Shown here: positions 3,434-38,613 of the stretch, one piece after another
Layout: every line of letters begins with the position of its first letter
How positions within the stretch are numbered: the stretch's first letter is position 1
Virus record (IMG/VR): IMGVR_UViG_3300045988_059300
Length of the DNA stretch: 42,446 nucleotides
Strand: one strand, 5' to 3'
Source of the DNA: a virus
Position numbers and translations under genes: made by a program
Notes under the pieces: generated by a model
The model's input: only the letters and a program-made list of their open reading frames with translations
Told to the model about the DNA's origin: nothing
Database searches by the model: none

Positions 3434-4084
3434 GTGTATGTGAAACGGGATCAATTTACATTTTATCGGAGCTACTATGAGGCTCTGAAAAATTTACCGA
3501 AACGAGACCAGACTGCAGTCCTGATGGCAGTCATTGGTTATGCCCTAGACGAAACTGAGCCCTTGCTCTCCGGCGTCCCTCTTTCCGTTTTCACTTTGAT
3601 CCGCCCGACACTGGACAGCGGGAGGAACAAAGCACGAAACCGCATGAACAAATGCGGAACAAGATCAGATCAAACCGAGAACAAAGTAAAAACAAATCAG
3701 GAACAAACCTGTAAGGAGAGGGAGAAAGAGGTAGAGAGTGAGAGAGAGGTAGAGGTAGAGAGTGAGAAAGAGAGTAAGAACGATAGTTATACTCCCCCTA
3801 CCCCCTCTCCCAGGGGGAAACGCTTTTCACCTCCGACAGTCGATGAAGTCAAGGCATATTGTCAGGAGCGGAACAACGGGGTAGACCCGGAGTCGTTTGT
3901 CGCTTTCTATGCGTCAAAGGGGTGGCGGGTCGGTCAGTCTCCCATGAAAGACTGGAAACAGGCTGTAATCACCTGGGAAAAGCGCAGGAAGCAGGAAGGG
4001 AAGGAAAAGCCTACCGTCCAAAGCATGAACGACGAGACGTGGAAGTACATCCGGGAAATGTACCAGCATAAGGAGGAACCATGA
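3434..4084 (+). CDS. DUF6291-like phage replication/replisome-organizer-type protein
   Basis: N-terminal FTFYRSYYEALKNLPKRDQTAVLMAVIGYAL, an E/K-rich linker, and C-terminal VDEVKAYCQERNNGVDPESFVAFYASKGWRVG. Confidence 0.55.
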   Translation: MYVKRDQFTFYRSYYEALKNLPKRDQTAVLMAVIGYALDETEPLLSGVPLSVFTLIRPTLDSGRNKARNRMNKCGTRSDQTENKVKTNQEQTCKEREKEVESEREVEVESEKESKNDSYTPPTPSPRGKRFSPPTVDEVKAYCQERNNGVDPESFVAFYASKGWRVGQSPMKDWKQAVITWEKRRKQEGKEKPTVQSMNDETWKYIREMYQHKEEP

Positions 4085-4410
4085 ACAGCAAACAGAAGGG
4101 CAAGCGTGGTGAGCTGGAATGGGCCAGCTATTGCCGTGGGCAGGGCTATGACTGCCGCCGCACGGCTCAGTATTGCGGGAACACCGGGGACGCCTCTGAC
4201 GTTGTAGGGCTGCCCGGCATCCATCAGGAAGTCAAGCGTGTGGAGCGGCTGGATTTGGAGGCAGCTATGGCCCAGGCAAAGCATGATGCGCCTCCTTGGG
4301 AATATCCCATTGTAGCCCACCGGCGGAGCCGCTGCGAATGGCTGGTAACAATGCGGGCGGAGGACTGGTTTTCCCTGTACAGGGAATGGGAGGCAAGTCA
4401 TGACAACTAA
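4081..4410 (+). CDS. Hjc-like PD-(D/E)XK Holliday-junction resolvase
   Basis: KGKRGELEW..GDASDVV..HQEVK (E, D, E-x-K) in a 109-aa protein. Confidence 0.6.
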   Translation: MNSKQKGKRGELEWASYCRGQGYDCRRTAQYCGNTGDASDVVGLPGIHQEVKRVERLDLEAAMAQAKHDAPPWEYPIVAHRRSRCEWLVTMRAEDWFSLYREWEASHDN

Positions 4411-4723
4411 GAAGCTGCAAACCATTCTGGAGATGGTGGACCGGGGATACCTCCAGAAGGACATTGCCAAAGCGGTCAATGTGTCCGTTTCGACCGTCAG
4501 CATCTGGGCCCGGAAATATGGGCGTGTGCGGATACCGCGTCGCTACTGCCTGAAGATGTACACCATCTACGGCAAGGACGGGCAATACGCCTTTGAGGGC
4601 ACCGCCCGAGAGTGTGCGGAATATCTGGGCATCCGATACCAGTCCTTCCGGCGGATGGCGTCCCAATACCAGCGTTATGGCAAGGGCCGGTATGCAGTGT
4701 ATCCGTCGGAGGTGGAAGCATGA
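4400..4723 (+). CDS. HTH DNA-binding protein
   Basis: YLQKDIAKAVNVSVSTVSIWARKYG. Confidence 0.6.
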   Translation: MTTKKLQTILEMVDRGYLQKDIAKAVNVSVSTVSIWARKYGRVRIPRRYCLKMYTIYGKDGQYAFEGTARECAEYLGIRYQSFRRMASQYQRYGKGRYAVYPSEVEA

Positions 4724-9154: not shown

Positions 9155-9368
9155 GATGCCGAAGATGGAGCCGCAGGCATTTATCAAAATACTTCACAGC
9201 ACAAAGACAGGACGGTATGGAATGACCTTAAAGGAACTCTTCGTCATTGCCGACCATGCCGAGGACTGGTCAGATACGGCGTTCCTCGCCTTTAACTACG
9301 GCTTTCTGAAAGGCCAGCGCAGCATCAAAAACACCATGAAAAAGAAATCTATGGAGGTATCACAATGA
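9147..9368 (+). CDS. Hypothetical protein
   Basis: Start at GTG 9147 or ATG 9156. 70-73 aa. Confidence 0.5.
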   Translation: MIEMPKMEPQAFIKILHSTKTGRYGMTLKELFVIADHAEDWSDTAFLAFNYGFLKGQRSIKNTMKKKSMEVSQ

Positions 9369-10078
9369 ACGAACTGAGAGTTTTTAATTTCAATGACGCA
9401 GAAGTGGTCGACAGCCGGGATGTGGCTGAGATGACAAACGTTCGCCACGCTGATTTGATCGAAAAAATCACCGGGTACATGAAGCATTTAGCCAACGGAA
9501 ATTTCCGTTCGCTGGACTTCTTCATCCCGAACACTTACAAGGACGCCCAGGACAAGCCCCGCCCCTGCTATCTACTGACTAAGAAGGGCTGCGACATGGT
9601 GGCGAACAAGATGACCGGAGAAAAGGGCGTCCTGTTCACTGCTGCCTACGTCTCCGCCTTTGAGAAGATGCGGGAACATATCCAAGGCGGCAAAACAAAG
9701 CGGCCGGGAATGACCGACTACCAGATGGAGAGCATCCGCGTCCGCAAGGCCCAGCTTTTGGAGCGTCTGGCGAAGGAGTATGACGGTACTTACAGACAGG
9801 TTCTCCAGGCCCACGCTACCAAGGAGCTGACTGGGGAATACCTGCTCCCCCTGCCCTATATCGGGGAAAAGACGTACTCAGCACAGGAGATCGGCGAAAA
9901 ACTGGGCATCTCCGCAAACAAGGTCGGGATGCTCGCCAACCGGAACCACCTGAAAACGAAGCAGTACGGGACATGGGTCAATGACGTTGCCAAGAACTGC
10001 CCCGGAAAGGAAGTCCCGTCCTTCCGATACTACGAAAGCGTTGTTCCGGTTCTGAAAACGATCATCTCCAAACAGTGA
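9365..10078 (+). CDS. Rha-family phage regulatory protein
   Basis: N-terminal ELRVFNFNDAEVVDSRDVAEMTNVRHADLIEKI (pRha-type). Last gene of the + block. Confidence 0.8.
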   Translation: MNELRVFNFNDAEVVDSRDVAEMTNVRHADLIEKITGYMKHLANGNFRSLDFFIPNTYKDAQDKPRPCYLLTKKGCDMVANKMTGEKGVLFTAAYVSAFEKMREHIQGGKTKRPGMTDYQMESIRVRKAQLLERLAKEYDGTYRQVLQAHATKELTGEYLLPLPYIGEKTYSAQEIGEKLGISANKVGMLANRNHLKTKQYGTWVNDVAKNCPGKEVPSFRYYESVVPVLKTIISKQ

Positions 10079-10109: not shown

Positions 10110-13100
10110 TTATGCGTAGGGGTTATTTTTCTCCCAACTCTTGTTGATGATTGTCCAGAGGTCCGCCTTTTGCTCTTGGGTGAAATTGTGGCTATCCAGA
10201 TAAGCCCTGGCCTCACTTTTGGATTTGTACCCATTCTTGTCCGCATCAATTCCGTTCTTCATATCCGCATACTGTTCGACAGTCAGACCGGCAGCCACTG
10301 CCTGCTTCGTTTTCTCATAAGCCGTCCCAGACATGATCTCGGCGCCGTACTGATGATAGAGGGCCAAGTATTCCGCTGGAGATATTCCAAGATCGTTCTG
10401 CGCTGTCTCTGCGTTGTTTACCCATGCCGGAACACTGTCGGCTCCCAGAATCGTTTTCTTTGCCCGTTGGCTGGCGTAGTCATTACAGAGGTCCAAAAGC
10501 TCCGTCTTGGTAGTATCATTCGCCCTCTTGTATGCGCTGCTGCCCATCATGGAGGACAGCGTAGTCAGTGCGACGGCGCCGCGATCCCGGAGATAGTCCT
10601 GCCGCTCCTCGTAGGTCAAGGACTTGCTATAGGTATTGCCATCTTTTGTGTACGAGAGCTCCGATGGGGCGCTCTTAGAAGGATAGAAGGAGGTCTCCCC
10701 CGTCCGCTCGCGCAGCGCTTCCATGTTTTGAGACACTTCGCTCTGGTCGTAGGTATTGACTCCCACCGGGTTCAGCAGCGCGTTCAGCAGGCGGTCCGCA
10801 GTGCTCCCCTGATACAGCTTTTCCTCCCCCAGTGGGTTGACAGACCCCGGCAGGGTTTCTCGCAAACCCGGGATGCTGTTCTTCACGCTGTCCACAACCT
10901 GCTCTCCGAGCGTATCCCCGGAATAGGTATTGCGGGGTCGGTCATCCAGCCCACGGGCCGTAGACCGCAGAATGTTTGGTATCAGGGAAGAAGCTACCGT
11001 GTTTGCCCCCTCCTGCAGTAATACTTCCTGTGGGTCCTGTCCATATTTGATGATGTCCGTTGCCGCATTCCCAATGAACTGCATCACCGGAAGCTCCGCA
11101 GTTGCATCCATAAAGGATTTCGGCACAGCATTAAAAGAAGAAACGATGGGGTTCCCTTCACTCTTTGCCATCTCCGTTCCCAGGTTCATCAACAGGTTCA
11201 GCGGCTCGATGGAGGACAGGTCGATCAGGGTGTCTCCACTCTGCCATTCCGTGCTTCCACCGGACAAAGCCCGTTCCGTTGCGGAGATATTCAGTTGGGT
11301 TCCCGTGATGCCCTCGCTGGAATTCAGCGCCGCCACGTCCGGATCATCCTCGTCCCCTGCCTGAGACAGAAGCCCCGACTGGGCCAAAAGCATAAATCCG
11401 TAAGCAATGGCGGTTCCGGTGAGGCCCCGGGTAGTGTCAGAGACGGCCCGGGCCTGTGCAGCCGGGTCCACATTCTGACCGCTGACAGCCTGCGCCACGG
11501 TTTTACCCATCTCCACAATACCCTTGACAGCGTTCGCGGGAGAATACTCCAAACCGCGAGATGCCAGATTTCCGGCTACCCGAGTAAACGGCGCCACAAT
11601 GTCACCAGCTCCGAAGGCATGGACTGTACGGCCGCGGATGCTCCGTCCACTGTCACCAATGCCAGCAACCATATTCAGTACATCATGTACCTGCTGGATC
11701 GCAAGAGAAAGTTTGCTGTCATCCTGGAACGTCCGGTATCGTGCAAGTGCGTCAGCTTGGTTCTGTGCATAGTCCTTGTCAGTAGTCTTGATCTTCCCTT
11801 GGTCGACCAGCGCCTGGGTACGGCTCGCATTGCTGCGGGCAAGGCCCTTGTAGAATTCGTCTGTGGCATTCAAAAGGTACGCTTGGTTCCGCTCCAGCAT
11901 AGACATTACACGGTCCACAAAGTTTCCGCTGGCTTTGAAGGTCCGGCGGCTGCTGGTGCCGTACCGGCTCTGATTACCGCCCATGTCTACGTCCATGGTG
12001 ATTTCTGCAATCGCCATTTGCATCGCCTTGGCTGCCTGCCCCAGATTGGAACGTTCATAGGCCACGCTGCGGGTCCCTGTTACTTTGGACAGCGCCATAT
12101 CCAGCAGGGCCGCCCCCTTCATGGAAAGCGCGTCCAGGCCGTAGAAAGACGTGTTTCCGGTGATGTTCTTCACCGCCGTTTTGGGGTTGGACAGCATGTT
12201 CAGGATTTGGATAGTCTTGATCTTCTGACCCATGTTGGCCGGTGTGGAGTCGGTGCTGAGCGCAGAAGTGGAAGCATAGGCGAACTGCTTCAACTGGTCG
12301 AATGTCAGGGAGTCCAAGCTGCTGTTTGCAACCGCGGTCATAATCCGGCTCTGCCGACCAGTTAAGCCATTCAAAACGCCCCGCTGCTGTGCAACGTTCA
12401 GGATAATGTCTTTCAACTGCTGCGGCTCTGCGGCCTGCTCGATCTCCGTATCCCACTTCACAATCCGTTGGAAGGTGCTGCGCTTCTCTTCTTCGGAAAG
12501 ATTGGAGTTTTGCAGATTGTCCCACGCCTCCAGCTCCGAAGATTGTCCGTTCTGGTTGTCCCGGCGGCTCCACTTGGCGTTTGCCTGAACGCCCTGACCA
12601 GTGGCAGTCTCATGCTCCCGCATGATCCGCAGGAAGTCCGTATATTCCTCAGAGGGGATCTCCAGATTTGCGGACCTGCCCTGCAGCTCCTGCTGGATCA
12701 TCCGGGCGGCATCCATCTGGGGCGCATTCCATGCCGTCGCATCATCTAGGGACTGCACCAACTCATGAAAAGCCGTCTCGTCAATGTCTCGCAGGAAGGT
12801 CCGCTGGCCGTCCCGAACGGCGTACACCAGTTCTTCTGCCAGATTGAGAGAACGCCCTTCTGTTTGGCTTTCATACCGGAACAGCTTGGCATAGTCCTCC
12901 CGTGAAAGGCCGGTGGCGGCTTCTTGATATTGATTATACGGCATGGACTCCGCAAGGCGGCTGGTCCTCTCCTGCCCTTCCATGCCGGGGGTGGTGAAGC
13001 CCCGCCGGGCGCTGCCCAGGTTGTCATAGGTTGGCGGTGCCTGTGTGTCTCCGGTTTCCTGCCGGGTATCCCCAAACAGAATTTGCGCCAGAGCGTCCGA

Positions 13101-15059
13101 ATTGACATTTTCCGCGCCGGGTGCTATAGTAGTATTAGAAGCAGGAACTCCTCGGGAGGCCCGCCCGTCTGTCACGGTGTCGACAGTGCCCGGTGTTGTT
13201 CCTGCACCATCCCCCGCGTCTACTACGGTATCGAGGTCACCCGAAAGGGCAGAAGTTCCGTCTGGTGTAGATGCGGGGGATTCGTCATTTCTAAAGATGA
13301 CGTCTCCATTTGCATCCACTACCTCGTGAAGATAGTAGCGGTTGCTGGCGCTGTCCTTCGTGACGATGACACCTAAGTAAGTAGGCTGCCCCCGGTAGGT
13401 AATTGGCGCTGCGAAAGTGTAGGTATCATAGCCGCGCCCTTTCCAGTTCTGTTGATAGTCAATCTGCTGGCCGTTTCGGATTACATCCGGGACGGCCGCA
13501 AATGTCTCGATTTTGGAAGGGCCTGTCCCATGTCCGATCATGCTGGACTTGATTCTCCCCCTGGAGAATAGAACATCACCAAAGCCGGGCCGATTGACCT
13601 TATTCCCAATCGCATTGACAAAAGAGGCAAGCCGATCCACCAGTTTTCCACTTCGGGGGATTTCTGTCCCAGTAACCTCGGCAACCGGATTCATGTTTTG
13701 GATATGCGGAATAGACTGACGTACACGGCTAACAAGCGTTGGCTCCAAAAAGCCTGTAGTGCCCTCTGCAGCCTCCTGTGCCTGGGTGGTGGAAACGGGT
13801 GCAGTTTCCGTTTGCGCCGTTCCTGCGGCATCTGTGGCCCGGCGATTGGCATTTTCGGCGCTCCTGCGGCCAATGCTTCCAGCAGCTCCAAGCGCACCAC
13901 CCAAAGCGCCTCCAATCAGGCCCTGATAAATGGTGTCTGCCAGATAGTCCGGGTCCTGATATTGCTGCAGGGCGGTTTTATCATAGGTGATCCGCTGCAG
14001 CACCGGCTGGACCAATGCTTCCACAACTTCCTCTCCACCTTCGCTTAATGCGGAAAGGACCGTTTGTCCAGCCGCACTCTGGCCCAGGCGTCCGGTTGCT
14101 TTTGTGATAGCATTGTCCAGGACACCGGAACCAAAGGTCCGCCGAAGTGGGGCGGCCACGTTGGCGATCTTCTCTGTCGCTACACTGAGCGCCGCGCTCC
14201 CCGCGCCATAGGCCACCTGCTGCCCCAGCGTCGCCCCCTCCTGCCGGGCCTGCTGCGTCCCGGAGCCAAAGCCACGGACAGCCATTGGAACAAGCGCACT
14301 CCCTCCAGTGAGAGCTGCCAGAAGAGCGTCGCCCGCCAACTGCGTCCCGGCCACACCCACGTCCACCGCGAACTGACCGACACTTCCAAGCCCCTCCTTT
14401 GCCTCCGCGATGTTCTGTGCCGACTGGGCCGCAAGACGGTCCGCCGTATCATACACGGCCTGAGTGGCCCGTGCAATGGGGGCGTGCTGCTTCACAGCTG
14501 CGTCATGGTATCCGGTAGAACGGCTGTCTGCACGGGAGGCAAGCATCTCCAACTGCTGCCGCATGGATGCTGTGATAGGTGTTCCATCATCCAGCGTCCC
14601 ACGCTCCAACATCTCCCGGTAGTGGGCTGCATTCTCTTCCTCCTGGTTGGCCCGCCGGGTGTAGGAGCTGCCAGCAGTATCATAAGAACGCAGCAGGTCC
14701 AGAAAGGTCCCGCCGGTACTCGTAAAGCCCGCCGCCGTTCCCTGTGCAGCGCCTTTGAGCATACTCCCGCCGCGGGACGCCTCCGGTGTGGAGATCACCT
14801 GCCCGGTGGTGCTGTCCACCACTTCGCTGATGTGTCCAGTGTCTCGCATCAGGATATTTAGAAGCGTATCCGGCTTCGTCTTTTCTTCGGCAACTTTCCG
14901 CTGAGATTTTGCCGAGCTGCTGATCTTGCCGGTAATGGTATTCTTTCCGGCCTTTGTTTTCGGCTTGGTCGTAATCGCCTCAACATTCGGACGACTTCTT
15001 ACCGGATCAGGGTCATACGTCAGTGTCTCACCTGTGCTGATCCTTTTAAATGTCGGCAT
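10110..15059 (-). CDS. Large (1649 aa) polyvalent-type virion/ejection protein candidate
   Basis: AAAGAGGTGA RBS. N-terminal helical and Gly-zipper segments (GLIGGALGGALGAAGSIG). Mid domain GHGTGPSKIETFAAVPDVIRNG...YLGVIVTKDSASNRYYLHEVVD resembles nuclease-like modules of phage polyvalent proteins. Confidence 0.6.
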   Translation of the reverse strand: MPTFKRISTGETLTYDPDPVRSRPNVEAITTKPKTKAGKNTITGKISSSAKSQRKVAEEKTKPDTLLNILMRDTGHISEVVDSTTGQVISTPEASRGGSMLKGAAQGTAAGFTSTGGTFLDLLRSYDTAGSSYTRRANQEEENAAHYREMLERGTLDDGTPITASMRQQLEMLASRADSRSTGYHDAAVKQHAPIARATQAVYDTADRLAAQSAQNIAEAKEGLGSVGQFAVDVGVAGTQLAGDALLAALTGGSALVPMAVRGFGSGTQQARQEGATLGQQVAYGAGSAALSVATEKIANVAAPLRRTFGSGVLDNAITKATGRLGQSAAGQTVLSALSEGGEEVVEALVQPVLQRITYDKTALQQYQDPDYLADTIYQGLIGGALGGALGAAGSIGRRSAENANRRATDAAGTAQTETAPVSTTQAQEAAEGTTGFLEPTLVSRVRQSIPHIQNMNPVAEVTGTEIPRSGKLVDRLASFVNAIGNKVNRPGFGDVLFSRGRIKSSMIGHGTGPSKIETFAAVPDVIRNGQQIDYQQNWKGRGYDTYTFAAPITYRGQPTYLGVIVTKDSASNRYYLHEVVDANGDVIFRNDESPASTPDGTSALSGDLDTVVDAGDGAGTTPGTVDTVTDGRASRGVPASNTTIAPGAENVNSDALAQILFGDTRQETGDTQAPPTYDNLGSARRGFTTPGMEGQERTSRLAESMPYNQYQEAATGLSREDYAKLFRYESQTEGRSLNLAEELVYAVRDGQRTFLRDIDETAFHELVQSLDDATAWNAPQMDAARMIQQELQGRSANLEIPSEEYTDFLRIMREHETATGQGVQANAKWSRRDNQNGQSSELEAWDNLQNSNLSEEEKRSTFQRIVKWDTEIEQAAEPQQLKDIILNVAQQRGVLNGLTGRQSRIMTAVANSSLDSLTFDQLKQFAYASTSALSTDSTPANMGQKIKTIQILNMLSNPKTAVKNITGNTSFYGLDALSMKGAALLDMALSKVTGTRSVAYERSNLGQAAKAMQMAIAEITMDVDMGGNQSRYGTSSRRTFKASGNFVDRVMSMLERNQAYLLNATDEFYKGLARSNASRTQALVDQGKIKTTDKDYAQNQADALARYRTFQDDSKLSLAIQQVHDVLNMVAGIGDSGRSIRGRTVHAFGAGDIVAPFTRVAGNLASRGLEYSPANAVKGIVEMGKTVAQAVSGQNVDPAAQARAVSDTTRGLTGTAIAYGFMLLAQSGLLSQAGDEDDPDVAALNSSEGITGTQLNISATERALSGGSTEWQSGDTLIDLSSIEPLNLLMNLGTEMAKSEGNPIVSSFNAVPKSFMDATAELPVMQFIGNAATDIIKYGQDPQEVLLQEGANTVASSLIPNILRSTARGLDDRPRNTYSGDTLGEQVVDSVKNSIPGLRETLPGSVNPLGEEKLYQGSTADRLLNALLNPVGVNTYDQSEVSQNMEALRERTGETSFYPSKSAPSELSYTKDGNTYSKSLTYEERQDYLRDRGAVALTTLSSMMGSSAYKRANDTTKTELLDLCNDYASQRAKKTILGADSVPAWVNNAETAQNDLGISPAEYLALYHQYGAEIMSGTAYEKTKQAVAAGLTVEQYADMKNGIDADKNGYKSKSEARAYLDSHNFTQEQKADLWTIINKSWEKNNPYA

Positions 15060-17483: not shown

Positions 17484-18221
17484 TTAGCAGCCGCAGCCAC
17501 AGGGATTGCAGCCGCATCCGGCATAAGGATTGGGCACCTGATAGGCCGGGACAGGCATGGGATTGATGCGGCGGATCAGCTCGGCAGTCTGCGCTTCCTG
17601 GTTAGCGGTAATAAAAGCATTCTGCGCCGCCTGAGAAGCCTGGAACTTCAGGCTCTGGTTTTCAGCCGTCAGAGTAGCGATCTTGTCCTGGGTCAGGAAG
17701 TCCAGGATCGCGCGGCTGTTGGCATTGGCGTTGTCGATGATGTCGCGGGTGCTGGACTGGATGGTGTTGCGGGTATCGCAAGCCTGGGTAGCCATGTCAT
17801 AGCGGACACCGTCAATGCTCCGCTGAGTATCGCAGCAGCACTGCGCCAGCTGGGCGCCGAGGGCGTTAAAGCCCGCCTGCGTCTGATAGCCCAGGTTGCA
17901 CACAGCGGTATCCACGCCATGGAAGCCGTTGCTCACGGCATCCCGGATGGAGGTCTGGCCGTTCTGGAGACCGTTCAGGGCGAAGCCCTCGTTGATGTCG
18001 GCCCTGGTGGCCCAGCCCTGACCGGAGGGAGAGCCCAGGCCATTGCCGGAGTTACCACCCCAGCCGCCGCCATAGCCGCCCCAGCCGAACATACCAAAGA
18101 TCAAAAACAGGATAATCCAGGAGGCCCAATCGCCGCCCCAGCCGCCGAAACCGCCGTTTCCGCCTTGGTAGGCAGGAGTCACGGGCATGGTCATCACAGC
18201 GCCGTCAGAAGAAAGACTCAT
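17484..18221 (-). CDS. Gly/Trp-rich membrane protein with Cys-rich tail (245 aa)
   Basis: AAAGGAG RBS. GGNGGFGGWGGDWASWIILFLIFGMFGWGGYGGGWGG. C-terminus AGCGCNPCGCGC. Confidence 0.8.
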   Translation of the reverse strand: MSLSSDGAVMTMPVTPAYQGGNGGFGGWGGDWASWIILFLIFGMFGWGGYGGGWGGNSGNGLGSPSGQGWATRADINEGFALNGLQNGQTSIRDAVSNGFHGVDTAVCNLGYQTQAGFNALGAQLAQCCCDTQRSIDGVRYDMATQACDTRNTIQSSTRDIIDNANANSRAILDFLTQDKIATLTAENQSLKFQASQAAQNAFITANQEAQTAELIRRINPMPVPAYQVPNPYAGCGCNPCGCGC

Positions 18222-18365: not shown

Positions 18366-18587
18366 TCACTTCCCAAACATACCCCGCATCCCCTCAAACA
18401 TGCCCTGCATCTGCTGGGCCTGATTCTGGACTTGGTTGAGCTGATCTTGGGAAATGCGTCCAGAGGATACCATCTCTTGTATCATGGCGTTGGGGTCTTT
18501 GCCCCGCATCTGCTGCATGAAGGATTGAAACTGCTGCATCATGTTGGGCTGTCTGTTGCCGCCCATAGCCTGATAAAACGGGTTCAT
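18366..18587 (-). CDS. Q/M-rich small protein (73 aa)
   Basis: AAGGAGG RBS and ATGA coupling. MMQQFQSFMQQMRG...QNQAQQMQGMFEGMRGMFGK. Confidence 0.7.
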   Translation of the reverse strand: MNPFYQAMGGNRQPNMMQQFQSFMQQMRGKDPNAMIQEMVSSGRISQDQLNQVQNQAQQMQGMFEGMRGMFGK

Positions 18588-18991
18588 TCTGCATCCTCCT
18601 TATCTTTTGCCGCCAGCGCATCCAGGCGGGCCTCCAACGCTTCCAAGCGGGACAGGGGCGCATACTCTACCGTTGGAGCCTGCGGGGCCTGTACGGGCCT
18701 CTGATTGCGCTCTACAAGGTCATATATCTTCATGCTGGGCTTGCCGCTTGCGTCCGCCTGTTTGAGATAGACCACTGGGGCGTTACTGTCCCACAAGGTA
18801 ACGGCAGAGTTAGGCGCCACCAGATAATTTGCCGCCTCCATCTCGCTCTGCACCCACACAATAGACGGAGATGCCGGGGCTTGCTGCGGCTGCTGCATGG
18901 GTTGATAGGACTGCCGCAGCTGCGTCAGCTGGTCCGCCATAGGCGGCTGATACGGTTGGTACGGCTGATAGTAATAGGGATAGTTCGGCAT
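18584..18991 (-). CDS. Protein with YQP-rich N-terminus (135 aa)
   Basis: MPNYPYYYQPYQPYQPP..., then IVWVQSEMEAANYLVAPNSAVTLWDSNAPVVYLKQADASGKPSMKIYDL. Confidence 0.75.
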   Translation of the reverse strand: MPNYPYYYQPYQPYQPPMADQLTQLRQSYQPMQQPQQAPASPSIVWVQSEMEAANYLVAPNSAVTLWDSNAPVVYLKQADASGKPSMKIYDLVERNQRPVQAPQAPTVEYAPLSRLEALEARLDALAAKDKEDAE

Positions 18992-18997
18992 CTCACG

Positions 18998-19360
18998 TCA
19001 TCCTTTCTGCCAGTAGTACAGCACAGTTTCGTGTTCACTGTGCCATGTATCGTAGATCACACCATCCTGCAGGCATACCACATGGCCGGACAGGGCCAGA
19101 ATGTAAGTCCCGTTTGGATGCCCCATCGCAAACTCCGCCACGGTCATATCCTCGGGCGCCATGTCCCGCCGGAAGCCATGCCGCCGGAGGTAAGCGCCCC
19201 ATGTGGCGTTGGCGCTTGGCATATCACCCCTCACAGCGCCCTCAATGCAGAGGCCAAGATATGTCCTGTACCAGTCCTGCTCCAGCGCCTTCGAGATGGC
19301 CCGGACGGTGCAATCCCCCACATTTTTCTCGTAGGGGTTCGGATTGTAAAATTCAAACAT
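18998..19360 (-). CDS. Papain-like (Cys-His) putative peptidase, about 120 aa
   Basis: NVGDCTVRAISKA...HPNGTYILALSGHVVCLQDGVIYDTW. An alternative start is at 19378. Confidence 0.6.
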   Translation of the reverse strand: MFEFYNPNPYEKNVGDCTVRAISKALEQDWYRTYLGLCIEGAVRGDMPSANATWGAYLRRHGFRRDMAPEDMTVAEFAMGHPNGTYILALSGHVVCLQDGVIYDTWHSEHETVLYYWQKG

Positions 19361-19544
19361 ATTGCTTTCGGTCGTCATACAAAAGCTCATTCTGCCGGAT
19401 AAACCGTTCCAATCCGGAGAAATCTCCCTCCGCCGCATACTTCTCGCAGGTGTCTCTTGCTGTGGACTCCGTGAAGCCACAGGCCACCAACCGGGCCACC
19501 AGTTCTGAACCATTCAGAATCAACTTAAAACACGTCCTTATCAA
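19353..19544 (-). CDS. Hypothetical small protein (weak call)
   Basis: Only TTG or GTG starts are available, with no clear RBS. Confidence 0.3.
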   Translation of the reverse strand: MIRTCFKLILNGSELVARLVACGFTESTARDTCEKYAAEGDFSGLERFIRQNELLYDDRKQYV

Positions 19545-19623
19545 TGAAATCAGGAGGCCGCAAGGAGGGCGGCGACGTGTACCAGCCCTTGTCCCTTACG
19601 TCCTCCATGCTTAAATTTTCTCA

Positions 19624-19659
19624 CAAAAAATCCCCGCATGGGTGGTATCCATGTGGGAG
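19624..19659 (-). terminator. Hairpin + U6 tract on the - strand (leader terminator candidate)
   Basis: - strand: cucccacaugg-auaccac-ccaugcgggga-uuuuuug. There is one A.C mismatch on this strand. Confidence 0.4.
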
Positions 19660-19717
19660 TTGTGTGGCAATTATGGGGGTATTTATGTGGTCATGTCATT
19701 TTCGGCGGTTTTACGTG

Positions 19718-19745
19718 TTTACTTTTTTCAGAATAAGAATATAAT
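19718..19745 (+). promoter_or_regulatory. Promoter candidate for the antitoxin/toxin pair (TTTACT-16-TATAAT)
   Basis: Perfect TATAAT at 19740-19745, 24 nt upstream of ATG 19770. Confidence 0.5.
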
Positions 19746-19769
19746 GTAGGTAGAAAGGGGGTACGCAAT

Positions 19770-20201
19770 ATGGGAAGTGTTTTTGATACCGCAAAATATA
19801 TTCTTGAAAAGTGTGGCACTATGTCCACGATGAAACTTCAAAAGCTGTGCTATTATTCACAGGCTTGGTCTTTGGTATGGGATGATGCGCCCCTGTTCGA
19901 CGAAGATTTTGAAGCATGGGCCAACGGGCCTGTGTGTCCTTCCCTTTTCCATCACAGCCAGGGAAAATTTTCGGTCTCTGCCGATGAAATGAAGGGCAGC
20001 AGCGAAAACCTTAGCGATGGGCAAAAGGATACCATCAATAAAATTCTGGAATACTATGGAGAGAAAAATGCCCAGTGGCTCAGCCAGCTCACACACATGG
20101 AAGGCCCATGGCAAGATGCCAGACGTGGATTCCCCGCTGGAGCCCTGTGTAACACTCCTATCACAAAGGAAAGTATGGCAATGTATTATGGCGGGCTCTA
20201 A
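19770..20201 (+). CDS. Panacea (SocA/DUF4065)-domain antitoxin
   Basis: VFDTAKYILEKCG.MSTMKLQKLCYYSQAWSLVWDDAPLFDEDFEAWANGPVCPSLF. Confidence 0.8.
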   Translation: MGSVFDTAKYILEKCGTMSTMKLQKLCYYSQAWSLVWDDAPLFDEDFEAWANGPVCPSLFHHSQGKFSVSADEMKGSSENLSDGQKDTINKILEYYGEKNAQWLSQLTHMEGPWQDARRGFPAGALCNTPITKESMAMYYGGL

Positions 20202-20682
20202 GCGCGTTAAATGTGGTGGTACTCCGAAATCGGAAGTCAGACAAGGCGGGGTGCCGTTACCCGGCATCAAGCTGGGCGGAGACCCGGACAGCATTATGAA
20301 GGAGCATCCATCTTGGCGGCTGGCATCTTGCGATATGGAGCCAAATATTAGATGGTCTTTTCATGAGCCACGTCTCTCTCATGAGTTCTGGACTACGATT
20401 TTCCCAAAATTGCAAGACTTCGAGCGCATGACTTGGAGCGACATTTTTATTTCAGCAAAAAAGCAGAACCATGCGATCGACGTTGCATCGCTCAATAAGC
20501 CAGCCAGAGATAGATTTTCAGAGCTATGTATCGAGGCAGAGGCTATCCACTCACTCAGACTTGGCGGGACAATTAGACTGTACGGATTCTTGACAGGGCC
20601 GATCTATAACATCCTATGGTACGATAATGACCATGGAGATAACGGAACATGCGTATGTCGCTCAGTAAAAAAACATACATAA
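20188..20682 (+). CDS. Unassigned toxin candidate partnered with the Panacea antitoxin
   Basis: Overlaps the antitoxin 3' end by 14 nt (an alternative ATG is at 20296). C-terminal IHSLRLGGTIRLYGFLTGPIYNILWYDNDH resembles the RelE/ParE-type strand pattern. Confidence 0.55.
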   Translation: MAGSKRVKCGGTPKSEVRQGGVPLPGIKLGGDPDSIMKEHPSWRLASCDMEPNIRWSFHEPRLSHEFWTTIFPKLQDFERMTWSDIFISAKKQNHAIDVASLNKPARDRFSELCIEAEAIHSLRLGGTIRLYGFLTGPIYNILWYDNDHGDNGTCVCRSVKKHT

Positions 20683-20689
20683 AGATAAA

Positions 20690-20722
20690 GGAGCCGGGTC
20701 AATCCCCGGCTCCCTTATTTTT
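20690..20722. terminator. Bidirectional terminator
   Basis: ggagccggg-tcaatc-cccggctcc is followed by cttattttt on the + strand, with a T-rich run on the - strand too. It overlaps the stop of 20699-20959. Confidence 0.7.
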
Positions 20723-20959
20723 GTAAAGCTGTTTTGCTACATCCTTAACCCTCCGGAATATATACTTTTCGTGATCGCTAACTGTGCTACGATACCAGCC
20801 CAATTCTGCTGCCACATCAATTTGATTCCACTTATCAATAATACGCCGCCTTGCGATCAGTTCATCGTCTGTATGGAATGCTGCTTCTTCAATAACTTTT
20901 TCCAGCTGAGAGCGCAAGAGCTTATCCAGTGGGTCAGGCAGTTTCACTTTTGCGCTCAC
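20699..20959 (-). CDS. Small HTH (sigma region-4-like) protein, last gene of the late/lysis unit
   Basis: GTG start 8 nt after GAGGGAGGA. WNQIDVAAELGWYRSTVSDHEKYIFRRV. Confidence 0.6.
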   Translation of the reverse strand: MSAKVKLPDPLDKLLRSQLEKVIEEAAFHTDDELIARRRIIDKWNQIDVAAELGWYRSTVSDHEKYIFRRVKDVAKQLYKNKGAGD

Positions 20960-20977
20960 AATCTCACGTCCTCCCTC

Positions 20978-21595
20978 TTATTTCATCAGCTTCCACATTC
21001 GGTACAGCATCGTACACATCTGCTGCCGGGTAACAGGCCGGGAGAGCATCAGGTCCCCCTCGCTGTTGCCCGTCAGGATGCCGTTCTTTACGGCCCATTC
21101 CACGCCCTCCTTGTGGGCGGGAGACGGTGTATTGTCCATAGTGACCTCCTTGTCATAGGCGGGCCGTACAGCCCCCAAAATCTGCCCTAGCGTCCGGGTC
21201 CGGCGCATGACCTCTCCCCCGTCGCTATCGTTGCCAATGGCGGTGTTGCCCTCGATGGCGGTGATGGAGCTGCCGCCCACCGCCTCCACGATGCCGCAGT
21301 GGTCCGGGCGCTTGTCCCCGCCCCAGTCGTAGATCACCACGTCTCCGGTCTGGTAGTTGGATGTTACCCAGTTCCCGGCGGACTTGGCGGCGTTCATCAA
21401 GATTGTGCAGCTGGCGGTCTCAATGGGCAGCTTGACACTCGCCTGGGCAAAGACCCACTCCACAAACATCACGCACCAGGGCTGGCCGTCTAGGCCGTAC
21501 CACGCACCGTATTTCGTCCGGTTGGAGTTGGCTGGGGTCTCTTTGTACCCCAGCTCTCCACGGGCGATGTCAAGGAGTTCCCGTACTGTTGCCAT
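20978..21595 (-). CDS. Endolysin: CHAP domain + single SLH-like C-terminal repeat
   Basis: GQPWCVMFVEWVF (Cys), RPDHCGIVE (His). C-terminal AHKEGVEWAVKNGILTGNSEGDLMLSRPVTRQQMCTMLYR. Confidence 0.8.
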   Translation of the reverse strand: MATVRELLDIARGELGYKETPANSNRTKYGAWYGLDGQPWCVMFVEWVFAQASVKLPIETASCTILMNAAKSAGNWVTSNYQTGDVVIYDWGGDKRPDHCGIVEAVGGSSITAIEGNTAIGNDSDGGEVMRRTRTLGQILGAVRPAYDKEVTMDNTPSPAHKEGVEWAVKNGILTGNSEGDLMLSRPVTRQQMCTMLYRMWKLMK

Positions 21596-21785
21596 TGTCC
21601 GCCTGCGCTTTCTTCTCCGCCTGGGTGCCAAAGTAGAAGGCGATCACCACGGTGTACACTGTCAAGAACTGCTCTGCTGTCACGCCGCCGGTGCAGGTCA
21701 GGTAAGCAAATACCGCCGTCAGCACGATGGTGGCGATGGACTTCACCGCCAGCAGGTTCCCGAGGCGCTTCTTCAGTGTCTCCAT
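21570..21785 (-). CDS. Holin (71 aa, two TM helices)
   Basis: GGAGGG RBS. SIATIVLTAVFAYLTC and LTVYTVVIAFYFG with a charged tail. Sits immediately upstream of the endolysin. Confidence 0.75.
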   Translation of the reverse strand: METLKKRLGNLLAVKSIATIVLTAVFAYLTCTGGVTAEQFLTVYTVVIAFYFGTQAEKKAQADNGNSTGTP

Positions 21786-29157: not shown

Positions 29158-30561
29158 TCAGTCACCCCCTCCATAGGTCAGATAATCGTCTGTCATTTCT
29201 CCGCCGGTCATCTCGTCGTCGTAGTCCGTCATCCCGGCGCTATCGAAGTCCTCCACTTTCGGCGGTGCGGGCTTCTCCGCGCTCAGTGTCCGGGTAACAC
29301 AAAAATAACGGCAGGCATCGCAGATGTGGGTGATCTCATGGGGTTCCGTGGCACAGTCCGACGGGTTTTTGTCGTCGTGCTGGATGGCCGGAAGATTCGT
29401 GCAAAGCCCCTTGCAGTCCTGCGTCACCAGCAGGCCCGGCCGGTCCTTTTCGCTGTTCAGTGGTTTCAGCATCTCCTTGACTGCCATCCAGCCCTGCACA
29501 CGGTTGTTGCTGGCCCGAATGATGCCAACGCCATTTTCCATGAACAGCTCTGCCATGCTCTTTCCGCTGTCCTTCTGCCGGTTCCACATATCCGGCGGCG
29601 CCGCCGTAAACTCGATCTGCTCCCAAGACGGCGTCAGGTCCAGCATCAGCTTTGCCGCCTCGGATACAATGATGCCGCTCTTCTGTACCTCGCGATACAC
29701 ATAGCAGCGCCCATCGAAATCAACAGCAATCCAGAGGCAGGCAAACATATCCAGGCCATAGTCGAACGCCCGGTACTTCTTCCACTCCGCAGGAATCCTC
29801 CAGAACGGTTTGATAATATGAGTCTCCGCCCGGAACTCCGGGAAGAATGTTCCGGCCAGAGCGTCCCAATCGCCATACCGCCAGGCCGCGCGCACATCAT
29901 CCGGCAGCAAGTCCAGCATCTGCACATACTCTGGGGACGCCTCCAGCAGCTGGGGATTATCATCCACCGTGGCGTGAATGAAGGTATAGTCCTCTGCTTT
30001 TTCTCCGTTCTGATACTGGCGAGAGATAAACAGGCGTTTGACCCACATGTGCCCAACTCCGCCGGGGTTACAGGTCAGGTACATCCGGCGTGGAAACTTC
30101 GTAGCACCGCGCAGACAGGCGCCCAGTGTTCGGAACTGGTATTCCGTGAATTGTGTCGCCTCGTCCATGAAAATCCAGTCGTATTCCTGGCCCTGATATT
30201 CCACATCGTCCCCGCTGCTATAATGTCCGAACTTGATAACACTTCCGTTGGAGAAGAAAAACATGTGCATGGTGGCGTTATATGCTGCGATCTCTGCCGG
30301 AATCAGCTTCCGCATGGGCAGGATCATCGTCTGCTCCAGTTCCGGATATTCTTTTCGGACAATCAAAATCCGGATTCCCGGATAGGTCATCGCACCGCCA
30401 ATCGCTTTAATCCGCACAACATGGCTCTTTCCGCCGCCGCGGGCGCCGCCGTATCCAACATAGCGAGACCGCGCCTGACAGAACTGCTTCTGCTTTGGGT
30501 TCAAATCTCCCAGAGCCAGATTGACGGCTCCGCTGTTGTTTCGTGCTTTCTTGTTTGCCAT
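29158..30561 (-). CDS. terL: Terminase large subunit
   Basis: Walker A GGARGGGKS and Walker B WIFMDEAT, with a C-terminal nuclease-type region. ATG 30561 follows AAGGTGA. Confidence 0.9.
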   Translation of the reverse strand: MANKKARNNSGAVNLALGDLNPKQKQFCQARSRYVGYGGARGGGKSHVVRIKAIGGAMTYPGIRILIVRKEYPELEQTMILPMRKLIPAEIAAYNATMHMFFFSNGSVIKFGHYSSGDDVEYQGQEYDWIFMDEATQFTEYQFRTLGACLRGATKFPRRMYLTCNPGGVGHMWVKRLFISRQYQNGEKAEDYTFIHATVDDNPQLLEASPEYVQMLDLLPDDVRAAWRYGDWDALAGTFFPEFRAETHIIKPFWRIPAEWKKYRAFDYGLDMFACLWIAVDFDGRCYVYREVQKSGIIVSEAAKLMLDLTPSWEQIEFTAAPPDMWNRQKDSGKSMAELFMENGVGIIRASNNRVQGWMAVKEMLKPLNSEKDRPGLLVTQDCKGLCTNLPAIQHDDKNPSDCATEPHEITHICDACRYFCVTRTLSAEKPAPPKVEDFDSAGMTDYDDEMTGGEMTDDYLTYGGGD

Positions 30562-30591
30562 GCGCTCACCTTTCAGGGAATGACTAGGGGA

Positions 30592-30615
30592 ATAGGCCCC
30601 CTTGCGGGGGCCTAT
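30592..30615 (-). terminator. Strong stem-loop directly after the major capsid gene
   Basis: ataggccccc-ttgc-gggggcctat, a 10-bp stem. No clean U-tract. Confidence 0.5.
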
Positions 30616-30620
30616 ATTGC

Positions 30621-31676
30621 TTACTCGTATGCCTTGTCGGCTTCCATGCCGCAGCAGCCGTCCTTGATCTGGATGCACCGCATAACTTGGCCGGAAGTCA
30701 GCGTCACGCCGCTGGAGGGATAGGTCTCAGCAGTAGAGCTGTACCGGGGGTTGGTCCCGTCCACCGTGTACTTGTACACATTGCTGCCCGGTTCGGAAAT
30801 CGTGACTTTGTGCGCAGAGATGGACAGTGTGGGAGCCGACAGAACAGCCGCGTTACTGCCGCACACTGCAACGCCGTCGCCCTTGGTTGCCAGGATGAAG
30901 CTGTCGTAGTAGGTGACGCCCTGCACCACAGGACCGGCATAGCCCTGTACCTTGGGCAGCACGTCATACTGCTGCAGCTTTACGGGGTCCACACTGGATC
31001 CCTTGTACTTGATTAGGAAGTACACGCCGGAGGGCAGATAGCTCTTGGGAATGGTGACGACTTTCGTTCCGTCCACTTCACCCACAACGCCTTTTGCCAG
31101 CGCCTTGGTGCCCAGGCCCTCCAGATTGATGAAGTCCGGGTTCTGCTTCAGCAGCTTGTAATACTCCGTGGGGATATACAGTGTCCGGTTCTCCACCGGG
31201 ACAAAGGCGTCCGTCATCTGGGCGTTGACATCGATGATGTACTCCACAATGGTGCTCTTGGTAGGCGCTGCGGAGGGCTGATACTGGATGTTGGCGCCCT
31301 CACACCACTTTCTCAGCCGGTACTTATCCATGTTGGGGATAGTGACCTCGTCCAGCTGACGCCGCAGGGACTTTCCCGCTGACTTCTCGATGGCCTGATC
31401 GCTGTTATCCAGAGGCTCAATGACAAATGTAAAGGCAGGCGCCTTGTTCATCGTCATCTCCTGGATCGTGTCGCCCAGGTTCTTCGGGGTGCCAAACCGG
31501 TTGCCATCTGCAGTCCGGTTATAATCGGTCTCCGGCACAGTATCCACGGAGTAGACACGGATGGTCTTGGCTCCTACAAAGGAATATTCGTGGCCCGCGG
31601 CGGAGTCCGTGATGGATGCCTTGTGAAATCTCTCTGCGATTTTGTCTGCGTATTTGACTGTGTAATTAACTGCCAT
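30621..31676 (-). CDS. Major capsid protein with C-terminal Ig-like/CHB_HEX_C-like module
   Basis: Immediately follows the scaffold gene. C-terminal PTLSISAHKVTISEPGSNVYKYTVDGTNPRYSSTAETYPSSGVTLTSGQVMRCIQIKDG. Confidence 0.75.
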   Translation of the reverse strand: MAVNYTVKYADKIAERFHKASITDSAAGHEYSFVGAKTIRVYSVDTVPETDYNRTADGNRFGTPKNLGDTIQEMTMNKAPAFTFVIEPLDNSDQAIEKSAGKSLRRQLDEVTIPNMDKYRLRKWCEGANIQYQPSAAPTKSTIVEYIIDVNAQMTDAFVPVENRTLYIPTEYYKLLKQNPDFINLEGLGTKALAKGVVGEVDGTKVVTIPKSYLPSGVYFLIKYKGSSVDPVKLQQYDVLPKVQGYAGPVVQGVTYYDSFILATKGDGVAVCGSNAAVLSAPTLSISAHKVTISEPGSNVYKYTVDGTNPRYSSTAETYPSSGVTLTSGQVMRCIQIKDGCCGMEADKAYE

Positions 31677-37286: not shown

Positions 37287-37527
37287 TTCACAGTAACAAC
37301 ACAGAACCATTGAATTTCTAATCAAAACAGATACAAAAGTCTTAAATCTTCAAATCTTTGTTTTCCCTATGTAATTCCAGCCTTTTCCTTGCAGCTCTAA
37401 GGTTTTGCAGGCTCTCTTTATATTACATTTTGTGACGTAAAATTACCATCTAAATTCACAGTAAATTCACAGTAAACCCGCAATTTCCGGCCTTTATGTT
37501 CACAGTGGAAAACTATGTGGAAAACTA
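37287..37527. repeat. attP-region repeats: TTCACAGT x4 plus two tandem duplications
   Basis: TTCACAGT at 37287, 37455, 37466 and 37499. Tandem aaattcacagt x2 and gtggaaaactat x2, directly 3' of int. Confidence 0.6.
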
Positions 37528-38613
37528 TCCCTCCCTGGCGTCCATGTAAGCTCCCAGCAGCTGGGCCGCGGTTGCCTTGTGCTGCTGCCGCAGATGGGTG
37601 TATACACTCTCAAGAACCTCCGGCGTGTCTCCCAGTATCTCCGCAGCCTGCCGGGGGTCAAGCCCCGCCTCATAACAGATCGTGGCGAAGCTGTGGCGGA
37701 AACAGTGGGGTGTGATGGGGAATGTCTCGTGTGTCGCACCATCGCTTGTCTGAATGATCTCATTCAAGCCCACATCCCGGCAGTATTTCCGCCAGTTCCT
37801 TGTGATCTCTCCGGCCCGCATATATCCGCCATCGGCGCCGGGGAAGATCAGTCCCACCCGGTTCCTGGGCAGGGCGTCCGCCAGCGGCGCCAGCAGCGGA
37901 ATCTTCCGGTTTCCGTTCTCGCTCTTCAGGTGGTCCTCCAGCTTCGGAAACTGCCCCATTGCATAGCTGAGCTTTTTGGTCACATGGATGACCCCGGCTT
38001 TCCGGTCAATATCCGCATAGGTCAGCGCCAGGGCTTCTCCCCGCCGCATCCCGGTATAAAGCAGCAGATACGGGAACAGCCACCAGTGGGCTTTTTTCTC
38101 CCGCCCCGCTGCCTTTACGGCGGCCTCCTGCTCTTCGGTCAGTGCCTCCCGGTGCTTCACCGGCAGCCCCCGGCTCTTCTTGATCTCCGCGGCCGGGGAA
38201 ATATCAATATCTCCGGAGATCACCGCATGGGCGAATATCATCTTGCAGACACACAATTCAATAGAAACGCTGTTGGCGCTCCTGCCCTGCTTCTCGAACG
38301 CGGAGATATACCGCTGGATATCCAGGGGCCGTATCTCCTTCGCAGGTCCGGGGAATGCCTCTTTCAGACGCTTCACGGCATAGGAGTATACCCGCCGCGT
38401 GGATTCTCCAATATCCCCTTCGTGCTGCACCTCCCACTCGTCCGCGATCTTTGGGAAGTCGCGCCCACGCTCTTTCTGCTCCTGGTATTCCAGGATTTTT
38501 CTGTCCACCTCGCGGCAGCTCTTTCCCCGGAATGCCACCCGCTTTCCGTTGATGGTCCGGATCGCCTCGAAGAGCCCGTCCGGCCTCTGATGATACTTGC
38601 TTTTCTTCGCCAT
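37525..38613 (-). CDS. int: Tyrosine-type site-specific integrase
   Basis: N-terminal SAM-like region. TGMRRGEALAL, HCFRHSFAT, LGDTPEVLESVYTH (R..H-x-x-R..Y). Confidence 0.9.
   Translation of the reverse strand: MAKKSKYHQRPDGLFEAIRTINGKRVAFRGKSCREVDRKILEYQEQKERGRDFPKIADEWEVQHEGDIGESTRRVYSYAVKRLKEAFPGPAKEIRPLDIQRYISAFEKQGRSANSVSIELCVCKMIFAHAVISGDIDISPAAEIKKSRGLPVKHREALTEEQEAAVKAAGREKKAHWWLFPYLLLYTGMRRGEALALTYADIDRKAGVIHVTKKLSYAMGQFPKLEDHLKSENGNRKIPLLAPLADALPRNRVGLIFPGADGGYMRAGEITRNWRKYCRDVGLNEIIQTSDGATHETFPITPHCFRHSFATICYEAGLDPRQAAEILGDTPEVLESVYTHLRQQHKATAAQLLGAYMDAREG

Follow-up and report, generated by a model that had tools for sequence, protein, structure and literature searches.

A pair of overlapping open reading frames (ORFs) lies on the + strand amid the − strand late genes of the IMG/VR virus record IMGVR_UViG_3300045988_059300, which raises the question of what the pair encodes, how it came to lie there and how its two products might work together. 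The window is the full 42,446-nt stretch of this record and the piece under study runs from 19718 to 20722; all the genes neighbouring the pair are on the − strand. The answer that we favour, with rather better than even confidence, is a PanA–PanT module of PanT cluster T1, which the phage carries among its late genes as a moron with its own transcription, and in which PanT is a putative RelE/YafQ-like endoribonuclease. The features of the cassette are as follows.

19666..20723, + strand: extent of the inserted cassette (moron), from blastn comparison with empty-site relatives, each edge being fuzzy by ~15-35 bp
19718-19745, + strand: promoter-like site TTTACT-16-TATAAT, matching 10 of 12 consensus positions
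19754..19761, + strand: Shine-Dalgarno-like AAAGGGGG, 8 nt 5' of the PanA ATG, read from the sequence
19770-20201, + strand: panA (gene 1), 143 aa, Panacea domain, presumed antitoxin
20188-20682, + strand: panT (gene 2), 164 aa, putative toxin of PanT cluster T1
20188..20201, + strand: panA/panT overlap of 14 nt, with the panA stop region on the panT start
20685-20718, both strands: bidirectional intrinsic terminator hairpin with a 14-bp stem, common to the convergent gene p86, whose stop codon it covers

A preliminary description of this DNA, made from its letters, had reported a two-gene + strand cassette with its own TATAAT promoter, and both the ORFs and the TTTACT-16-TATAAT site are present as listed. 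It had also described the cassette as richer in AT than its surroundings. The GC content is indeed 0.462 compared with 0.543 for the window, a value in the 4th percentile among 1007-bp windows.

Results

A stand-alone Panacea protein and the reading frame of its partner

PanA matches the Pfam family SocA_Panacea (PF13274, DUF4065) over residues 23-115 with an E-value of 1.5e-18 and 68.2 bits against a cut-off of 25.7, which bears out the SocA/Panacea signature that had been read in gene 1. It carries no further domain beyond Panacea, and it also matches phrog_1281 (1.4e-38). Against the NCBIfam SocA equivalog NF047745 it scores 46.3 bits, far below the cut-off of 190, and we therefore regard it as a stand-alone PanA and not as a SocA orthologue. 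The resemblance to the type VI system SocAB of Caulobacter thus lies in an antitoxin with the same Panacea/SocA-like domain, whereas the window toxin is unrelated to SocB; moreover, the PanA antitoxins studied to date bind directly and are not ClpXP adaptors as in SocAB (Kurata et al. 2022, PMC8832971).

The length of gene 2 had been left at 129-164 aa depending on the start chosen. The longer reading is supported and the shorter is not: M1 does not vary among 91 homologues, A2 and K5 are kept in at least 90% of them, and this N-terminal conservation, together with the conserved 14-nt overlap, favours 164 aa. Readings of 129 aa and of 221 aa were rejected on the same grounds. GGAGG is found in homologous loci at the position equivalent to AAAGGGGG. 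The close relatives of PanT form 106 clusters, nearly all of 150-170 aa and either unnamed or annotated 'hypothetical', and an exhaustive search at E <= 1e-3 extends the family to 2079 cluster representatives. The window copy is full length and stop-free, and is 95-100% identical to other database copies.

Pfam gave no match for window PanT or for 81 divergent relatives, NCBIfam gave no match to PanT above cut-off, and a PDB sequence search with PanT as a single sequence and as a profile returned nothing relevant. One NCBIfam match below cut-off, to MAG6450 (E 0.007), a name met in mycoplasma studies of whole genomes and gene transfer, was dropped.

PanT belongs to cluster T1

In the retrieved part of Dataset S1 of Kurata et al. 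(2022, PMC8832971), the proteins WP_121706052.1 and WP_121706053.1 of bacterium 1XD21-70 are entered as pT1/T1, antitoxin then toxin, with a gap of -14. In our locus from bacterium 1XD21-70 (L023), PanA occupies 3583-4014 and the toxin 4001-4468, and this toxin is 49% identical to window PanT (E 3e-48). Because the T1 row, with the same gene order and the same -14 gap, fits L023, we place window PanT in cluster T1, a family catalogued in 2022; L023 was equated with the T1 row by assembly, gene order and gap, not by an accession sequence look-up. Gene 2, which the preliminary description had called unclassified and a candidate new PanT, is thus a member of a family already listed, and it also matches the PADLOC model of NsnC, as described below. 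The same part of Dataset S1 holds at least 217 'pT1' rows from many phyla, and by this row count T1 is probably the largest or most common PanT cluster.

The window locus resembles the catalogued T1 loci in having a stand-alone Panacea antitoxin first, with the toxin immediately 3' and overlapping it, and in belonging to a family found on prophages and phages whose toxins are annotated as hypothetical and labelled 'mRNase' in SI Table S1 (PMC8832971). All three T1 members that have been assayed carry this label (Kurata et al. 2022, PMC8832971). It comes from SI Table S1 only: among the T1 rows in the retrieved part of Dataset S1, no RNase or toxin keywords were found. The window copy differs in being a new sequence in a phage of gut Clostridia, and the tested Emek clade is distant from it: Emek orf161, a T1 protein, scores 37 bits against our family's hidden Markov model (HMM), and its Pseudomonas phage counterpart 43 bits. 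The Emek match, distant as it is, also speaks for the T1 placement. In the alignment to these Emek-type proteins, which is a distant one, the residues opposite R130 of PanT are A or P and the residue opposite H149 is F.

The PanT core matches the C-terminal end of the NsnC model

A link to a known effector is provided by the PADLOC model of NsnC from the Menshen system, which window PanT matches with an E-value of 7.5e-6, residues 65-149 aligning with positions 198-278 of 284. The model is matched by 60 of the 81 divergent PanT relatives (best 1.9e-9), and eight further relatives match positions 178-284 only, the best (8.8e-11) being a Pseudomonas phage relative. Judged by these sequence matches, the core of PanT (approximately residues 57-150) and the C-terminal part of this model are homologous. 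In the passages retrieved from Kurata et al. 2022 and from the Menshen paper, neither states this homology.

NsnC's C-terminal domain, PB-BECR1, has been described as an RNase of YafQ-like BECR type whose triad is H-R-H, and most Menshen loci carry it (PMC12065111). PanT is like Menshen in that its residues 65-149 match the last ~100 positions of the NsnC model and in having H95, R130 and H149 to set beside the triad. It is unlike Menshen in that the 164-aa protein has no N-terminal inactive-PIN domain and in that neither NsnA (ParB-DUF262) nor NsnB (ABC ATPase/DUF3696) is present at the locus or in L001-L008, the partner instead being a Panacea protein. What PanT and Menshen have in common is the effector domain alone, not the system. 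H95, R130 and H149 are invariant in the 91 close homologues and window PanT keeps all three; in the divergent alignment H149 does not vary either, and conservation at H95 and R130 is 90% or more.

The AlphaFold2 model of PanT has a mean predicted local distance difference test (pLDDT) score of 82 at full length and, for residues 31-164, a pLDDT of 91 and a predicted template modelling score (pTM) of 0.86. It opens with a strand and two helices, continues with another strand and helix and closes with three long strands; H95 and R130 are each in a strand and H149 is past the last strand. The predicted order of a strand, two helices and an antiparallel sheet of 3-4 strands would suit the RelE/ParE superfamily (YafQ, HP0892/HP0894, YoeB, HigB, RelE), in which helices pack on an antiparallel sheet of 3-5 strands. 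In YafQ the catalytic residues H50, D61/H63 and H87 lie on the face of the sheet. PanT likewise has a conserved histidine in a strand and another just past the last strand, comparable to H50 and H87 of YafQ, and by this comparison H95, R130 and H149 may be equivalent to the catalytic residues of YafQ.

A Foldseek search of the PDB points the same way, although no match is significant (best E 0.14): among the top 50 matches, 41 for the full model and 42 for the trimmed one are RelE, YoeB, HigB, YafQ, HP0894, ParE or Cami1 (CARF-RelE). Target-normalised template modelling scores (TM-scores) are 0.45-0.56, with 0.52-0.53 for YafQ, and the best are with YafQ, HP0894 and YoeB. PanT differs from the superfamily in its length (164 aa, compared with 85-95 aa), in an N-terminal extension and an extra helix at 104-112 between strands, in a conserved C-terminal tail CVCRSxxKHT, and in having a Panacea antitoxin, not RelB, DinJ, YefM or HigA; nor is there sequence or profile similarity. 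From the model and the NsnC match together, the PanT core is probably a BECR domain of RelE/YafQ-like type, divergent and larger than usual, that shares its ancestry with the effector domain of Menshen.

Conservation of the two genes as a pair

In every context examined (L001-L008) a 143-aa Panacea gene lies directly 5' of the toxin with the same overlap. These contexts are related prophages (L001-L003), a Ruminococcus chromosomal island near UvrD-like and PLD/helicase genes (L004-L006) and other metagenome-assembled genomes (L007-L008). Further afield, a Rhizobium conjugative plasmid encodes a toxin 28% identical to PanT directly 3' of a gene annotated as 'SocA domain-containing antitoxin', and a faecal phage contig has the same arrangement. 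In tblastn searches with PanT, the phage and plasmid collections yielded one weak match each, informative for genomic context only.

We then surveyed 80 loci from species-representative genomes, mostly of Lachnospiraceae, Oscillospiraceae and other Clostridia. Both genes are intact at 54 of the 80, most of which have the 14-nt overlap geometry (PanA ending at 4014, toxin starting at 4001). With the plasmid and phage contexts, this count shows a conserved pair, in line with the two-gene cassette described earlier. Wherever an intact toxin has upstream DNA, a full-length PanA lies directly upstream, the exceptions being the near-intact toxins of L039 and L068.

The remaining loci show decay or truncation. 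PanA is intact and the toxin broken, by in-frame stops or 5' deletions, at 7/80; both genes are broken at 2/80; only a 3' remnant of the toxin, with no PanA, is left at 7/80; and at 8/80 the toxin lies at a contig edge, which puts PanA beyond assessment. The reverse state, an intact toxin with a disrupted PanA, was scored by script at 2/80 (L039 and L068), and neither is clear: in L039 the contig ends within PanA, and in L068 part of PanA and the toxin start have been deleted. The asymmetry of 7 against 0 or 1 fits a costly or addictive toxin, for which these small numbers are weak support.

Several further observations concern the pair and its relatives. In many genomes (L078-L088, for example L082 at 3974-4072 and L086 at 4001-4159) all that is left of the toxin is its final 20-60 codons, frequently without a neighbouring PanA. 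The tail of these remnants reads …WYDxxHGDNxxCVCRSxxKHT, and its highly conserved Cys-x-Cys…KHT part is missing from the Rhizobium and Emek-type relatives. A second Panacea gene was found near the T1 pair in L010 (7615-8441, − strand), L072 (4586-5059), L064 (885-1319) and L018 (7197-8216), the one in L010 having a very distant T1-like partner (E 2e-4), which suggests tandem or clustered PanAT modules in such genomes. In the cyanophage Cylindrospermopsis raciborskii virus RM-2018a (L093, 2001-2966), a PanA homologue (39.7% identical) is flanked by DNA methyltransferases and is followed by an annotated CRISPR array instead of a toxin gene.

The cassette is an opposite-strand moron in a cargo hotspot

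The preliminary description had taken the cassette to be a moron inserted on the opposite strand. We examined this in 80 IMG/VR contigs that encode relatives of p171, a late gene of the window (see below), by mapping the flanking genes on them and by blastn of the window. In the majority of close relatives, those with a p171 at least 85% identical, p86 is followed almost directly by p63 and p171, with no cassette. PanA and PanT are present between p86 and p63 in L110 and L126, which are colinear with the window through the whole region at 92-95% identity (blastn), and in the more distant L129, L131, L137, L138 and L142. By blastn, homology to the empty-site relatives stops at window positions 19665-19679 and 20687-20724. 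L098, L107 and L112 align to 21100..20724 and to 19665..19300 of the window, ~32 bp taking the place of ~1.06 kb, and the alignment edges in L103 are window positions 20687 and 19679. Because close relatives have an empty site at exactly that place, the cassette is a genuine opposite-strand moron, as had been claimed. A comparison of the cassette DNA with deposited phages gave no similarity match.

Other cargo occupies the same site. In L130 and L133 a Panacea protein other than this PanA (156 aa, PF13274 5.7e-22) precedes one of 119 aa whose C-terminal tail is hydrophobic, L134 and L140 have an 80-87-aa ORF, and L103 has a 95-aa ORF. All of this alternative cargo is on the strand opposite the late genes, in the gap between p86 and p63 (in the window, 19545-19769 and 20683-20723). 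Given this varied cargo, we regard the p86-p63 gap as a cargo hotspot of the phage lineage.

The allele of p86 tracks the cassette: it is 97-100% identical in the close cassette-bearing phages L110 and L126, compared with 50-85% in the empty-site phages. The edge of the insertion is therefore blurred on the p86 side. The p86 product has weak matches to helix-turn-helix and sigma-70 region 4 domains (E 0.0045-0.05), and its last codons form part of the shared terminator hairpin; p86 may be a regulator of the cassette, or the two may have travelled as one.

Promoter, terminator and repeats

In a scan of 1.8 kb we found 5 promoter-like sites where 2.3 +/- 1.6 were expected, so that a single site is not above chance. 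The position of the site is more informative. Among 67 distinct upstream regions of homologous loci, 31 have a promoter-like site ending 15-40 nt 5' of the PanA ATG, compared with 3.1 +/- 1.7 in shuffled sequences and 6-8 at other offsets in the same real sequences; the 67 regions are distinct yet phylogenetically related. We take the window site to be a putative sigma-70-type promoter of a two-gene operon, for which the positional enrichment is support and not proof. At the other end, the hairpin at 20685-20718 folds at -27.6 kcal/mol (z = -8.0), a value equalled by 0/200 shuffles, and a terminator is called here on both strands, in agreement with the bidirectional terminator described before.

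A search for an operator-like palindrome at the putative panA promoter found none. The only repeats there lie 5' of the -35 element: a 16-nt imperfect direct repeat (19641-19656/19675-19690) and an inverted repeat of 15 nt (19605-19641), which is weak. The copies of the direct repeat, GGTGGTATCCATGTGG / GGGGGTATTTATGTGG, straddle the point where homology to the empty-site phages ends (19665-19679). A promoter-like site on the − strand, ATGACA-18-CATAAT at 19699-19670, is directed at p63. The direct repeat and this − strand site may be what a recombination event left behind, or else a promoter of the phage backbone that the insert has displaced.

Discussion

Proposed working of the module and its alternatives

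The following account of the module is inferred throughout, from its transcription and coupled translation to the RNase activity and toxicity of PanT, its direct neutralisation and the biological role. In the lysogen, the sigma-70-type promoter would drive both genes on a single transcript, which the hairpin would end, and translation of PanT would be coupled to that of PanA through the 14-nt overlap. PanT would be a RelE/YafQ-like endoribonuclease of the BECR fold using H95, R130 and H149, and free PanT would block translation. The 143-aa Panacea protein would bind PanT directly and neutralise it. Direct neutralisation is proposed because PanA–PanT complexes have been demonstrated for other PanAT pairs (Kurata et al. 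2022, PMC8832971) and because a stand-alone Panacea domain is known to neutralise its toxin directly (Ernits et al. 2023). The prophage might benefit by excluding superinfecting phages through abortive infection once PanA is inactivated or titrated, or by post-segregational stabilisation.

Several results weigh against this proposal. Of the three T1 proteins assayed in E. coli, that of C. cadaveris (WP_074844970.1) is toxic and its own PanA failed to neutralise it, while those of an E. coli MOD1 prophage (WP_077635758.1) and of Salmonella phage Emek (YP_006560566.1) are non-toxic, so that none of the T1 pairs counts as a validated toxin–antitoxin (TA) system (PMC8832971). A toxin harmless on its own, which the preliminary description had named as evidence against its reading, is thus what was seen in two divergent T1 relatives. 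The decay asymmetry is small and suggestive only. That the matched part of the PADLOC model is PB-BECR1 is our inference from the published statement about most Menshen loci. On the structural side, the check that the preliminary description had proposed, AlphaFold and Foldseek on 20188-20682, gave lists dominated by RelE/ParE and yet no significant match in the PDB (best E 0.14, best probability 0.69, rmsd 4.7-10 Å), and a fold search of the viral structures in BFVD gave no meaningful match. Comparison of PanT by hhalign with a YafQ-family alignment (49-92 sequences of low diversity, Neff 2.8-2.9) gave a probability of 0.6-0.7%, a weak test in view of that low diversity, and the Pfam, NCBIfam and PDB sequence searches returned nothing tying PanT to RelE, ParE or YafQ. 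With an hhalign probability below 1%, we make no sequence-level claim to the YafQ or RelE families; the earlier hint of RelE/ParE likeness therefore survives as a direction, given by the fold lists and the match to the NsnC C-terminus, and not as membership by sequence.

The assays bear most directly on the main rival, that the module holds an effector of defence in a latent state and does not act as a classical TA system. PanT would then be harmless alone or in complex with PanA and would become a nuclease only upon a phage cue sensed by the Panacea protein; such a trigger-dependent, two-component abortive-infection system would fail a standard toxicity-neutralisation experiment, as the two non-toxic T1 members and the toxic one left un-neutralised by its PanA did. 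Panacea has been proposed to be primarily a sensor (Ernits et al. 2023), the same effector domain occurs in Menshen NsnC, where it is proposed to be gated by an ATPase, and the prophage site of the cassette is a hotspot at which cargo of a similar kind is exchanged. However, the C. cadaveris PanT is toxic without any trigger, and the 7 loci with a decayed toxin and an intact PanA suggest that the toxin has a cost. The non-toxic members also belong to a clade that has diverged (37-43 bits against our HMM), and because their counterparts of R130 and H149 differ, these two proteins may, tentatively, be poor proxies for the clade of the window. We consider a latent effector unlikely on balance, although it deserves more weight than any of the other rivals.

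The shape of the fold leaves room for a different target. PanT could be RelE/ParE-like in fold and not an RNase, acting as a gyrase poison like ParE or on some other target, with the H/R/H residues serving in binding. ParE structures are indeed among the fold matches (6xrw, 8c26, 6x0a and 7ycs for the full model, 6xrw and 6n90 for the trimmed one), and PanT could not be tied directly by sequence to any catalytic RelE or YafQ family. We nevertheless think this quite improbable: the best TM-scores are with the RNase members YafQ, HP0894 and YoeB, the His-Arg-His set mirrors both the published triad of the NsnC C-terminal domain and the H-D-H triad of YafQ, and Kurata et al. label T1 members as mRNases. 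Hardly any weight is left for the idea that PanA alone is functional and gene 2 an ORF arisen by chance or the relic of a decayed gene, an idea which conservation effectively refutes. Disrupted toxins or toxin fragments do make up 16/80 of the homologous loci, but the window copy is full length, has no stops and is 95-100% identical to database copies, keeps all invariant residues and is modelled by AlphaFold2 with a pLDDT of 91, and the family has its 2079 representatives.

A broader idea can be offered tentatively, and we do not expect it to be right more often than wrong: PanT-T1 may be a free-standing Menshen RNase effector domain in which a Panacea sensor replaces the ABC ATPase, and the cassette a prophage abortive-infection module. 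If so, the p86-p63 site would be a defence-swap hotspot at which PanAT cassettes, of the RNase type here and of the membrane-tail type in L130/L133, interchange with small cargo.

Regarding the PanA–PanT module that we favour, its importance is modest. No new kind of system is revealed. By the row count given above, T1 is probably the commonest family of Panacea-associated toxins, and the window locus is a well-behaved representative of it: full length, with the invariant residues kept and a confident model. H95/R130/H149 is a concrete catalytic hypothesis, and the homology to the NsnC effector ties the family to a known defence effector. The elements that may be new are small, namely the homology of T1 to the C-terminal part of NsnC, the H/R/H hypothesis for T1 and a hotspot with exchangeable PanAT cassettes. 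Near-isogenic phages with the cassette (L110, L126) and without it (L097, L098, L106) provide a ready-made comparison for superinfection exclusion.

The carrier phage and the neighbouring genes

The carrier is a temperate phage of gut Clostridia; we call it temperate because a terminase, an integrase-family gene and a Rha regulator are present in the window. These genes and the neighbours of the cassette are listed here.

20699-20959, − strand: p86, 86 aa, convergent with the cassette
20978-21631, − strand: endolysin (phrog_21825, 2.7e-32)
21570-21785, − strand: small holin-like gene
19353-19544, − strand: p63
18998-19513, − strand: p171 ORF as listed, conserved phage protein, function unassigned
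18584-18991 and 17484-18221, − strand: conserved phage proteins, function unassigned
29158-30678: terminase
37525-38613: integrase-family gene
9365-10078: Rha regulator

The GC content of the neighbours is 0.613 for the endolysin, 0.56 for p171 and 0.448 for p86, which is AT-rich like the cassette. The listed ORFs of p171 and p63 are in different frames and have 161 nt in common. In p171, the matches to distant homologues and to phrog_3754 begin only at residue ~46-52; the real start of p171 is therefore probably Met46 (~19378), with p63 a separate upstream gene. Downstream of the post-lysis block, an unusually large and uncharacterised ORF of 1649 aa (10110-15059, − strand) has no PHROG match and a borderline match to LPD3 (large polyvalent protein-associated domain 3), with an E-value of 6.7e-6 and 26.7 bits against a cut-off of 27.

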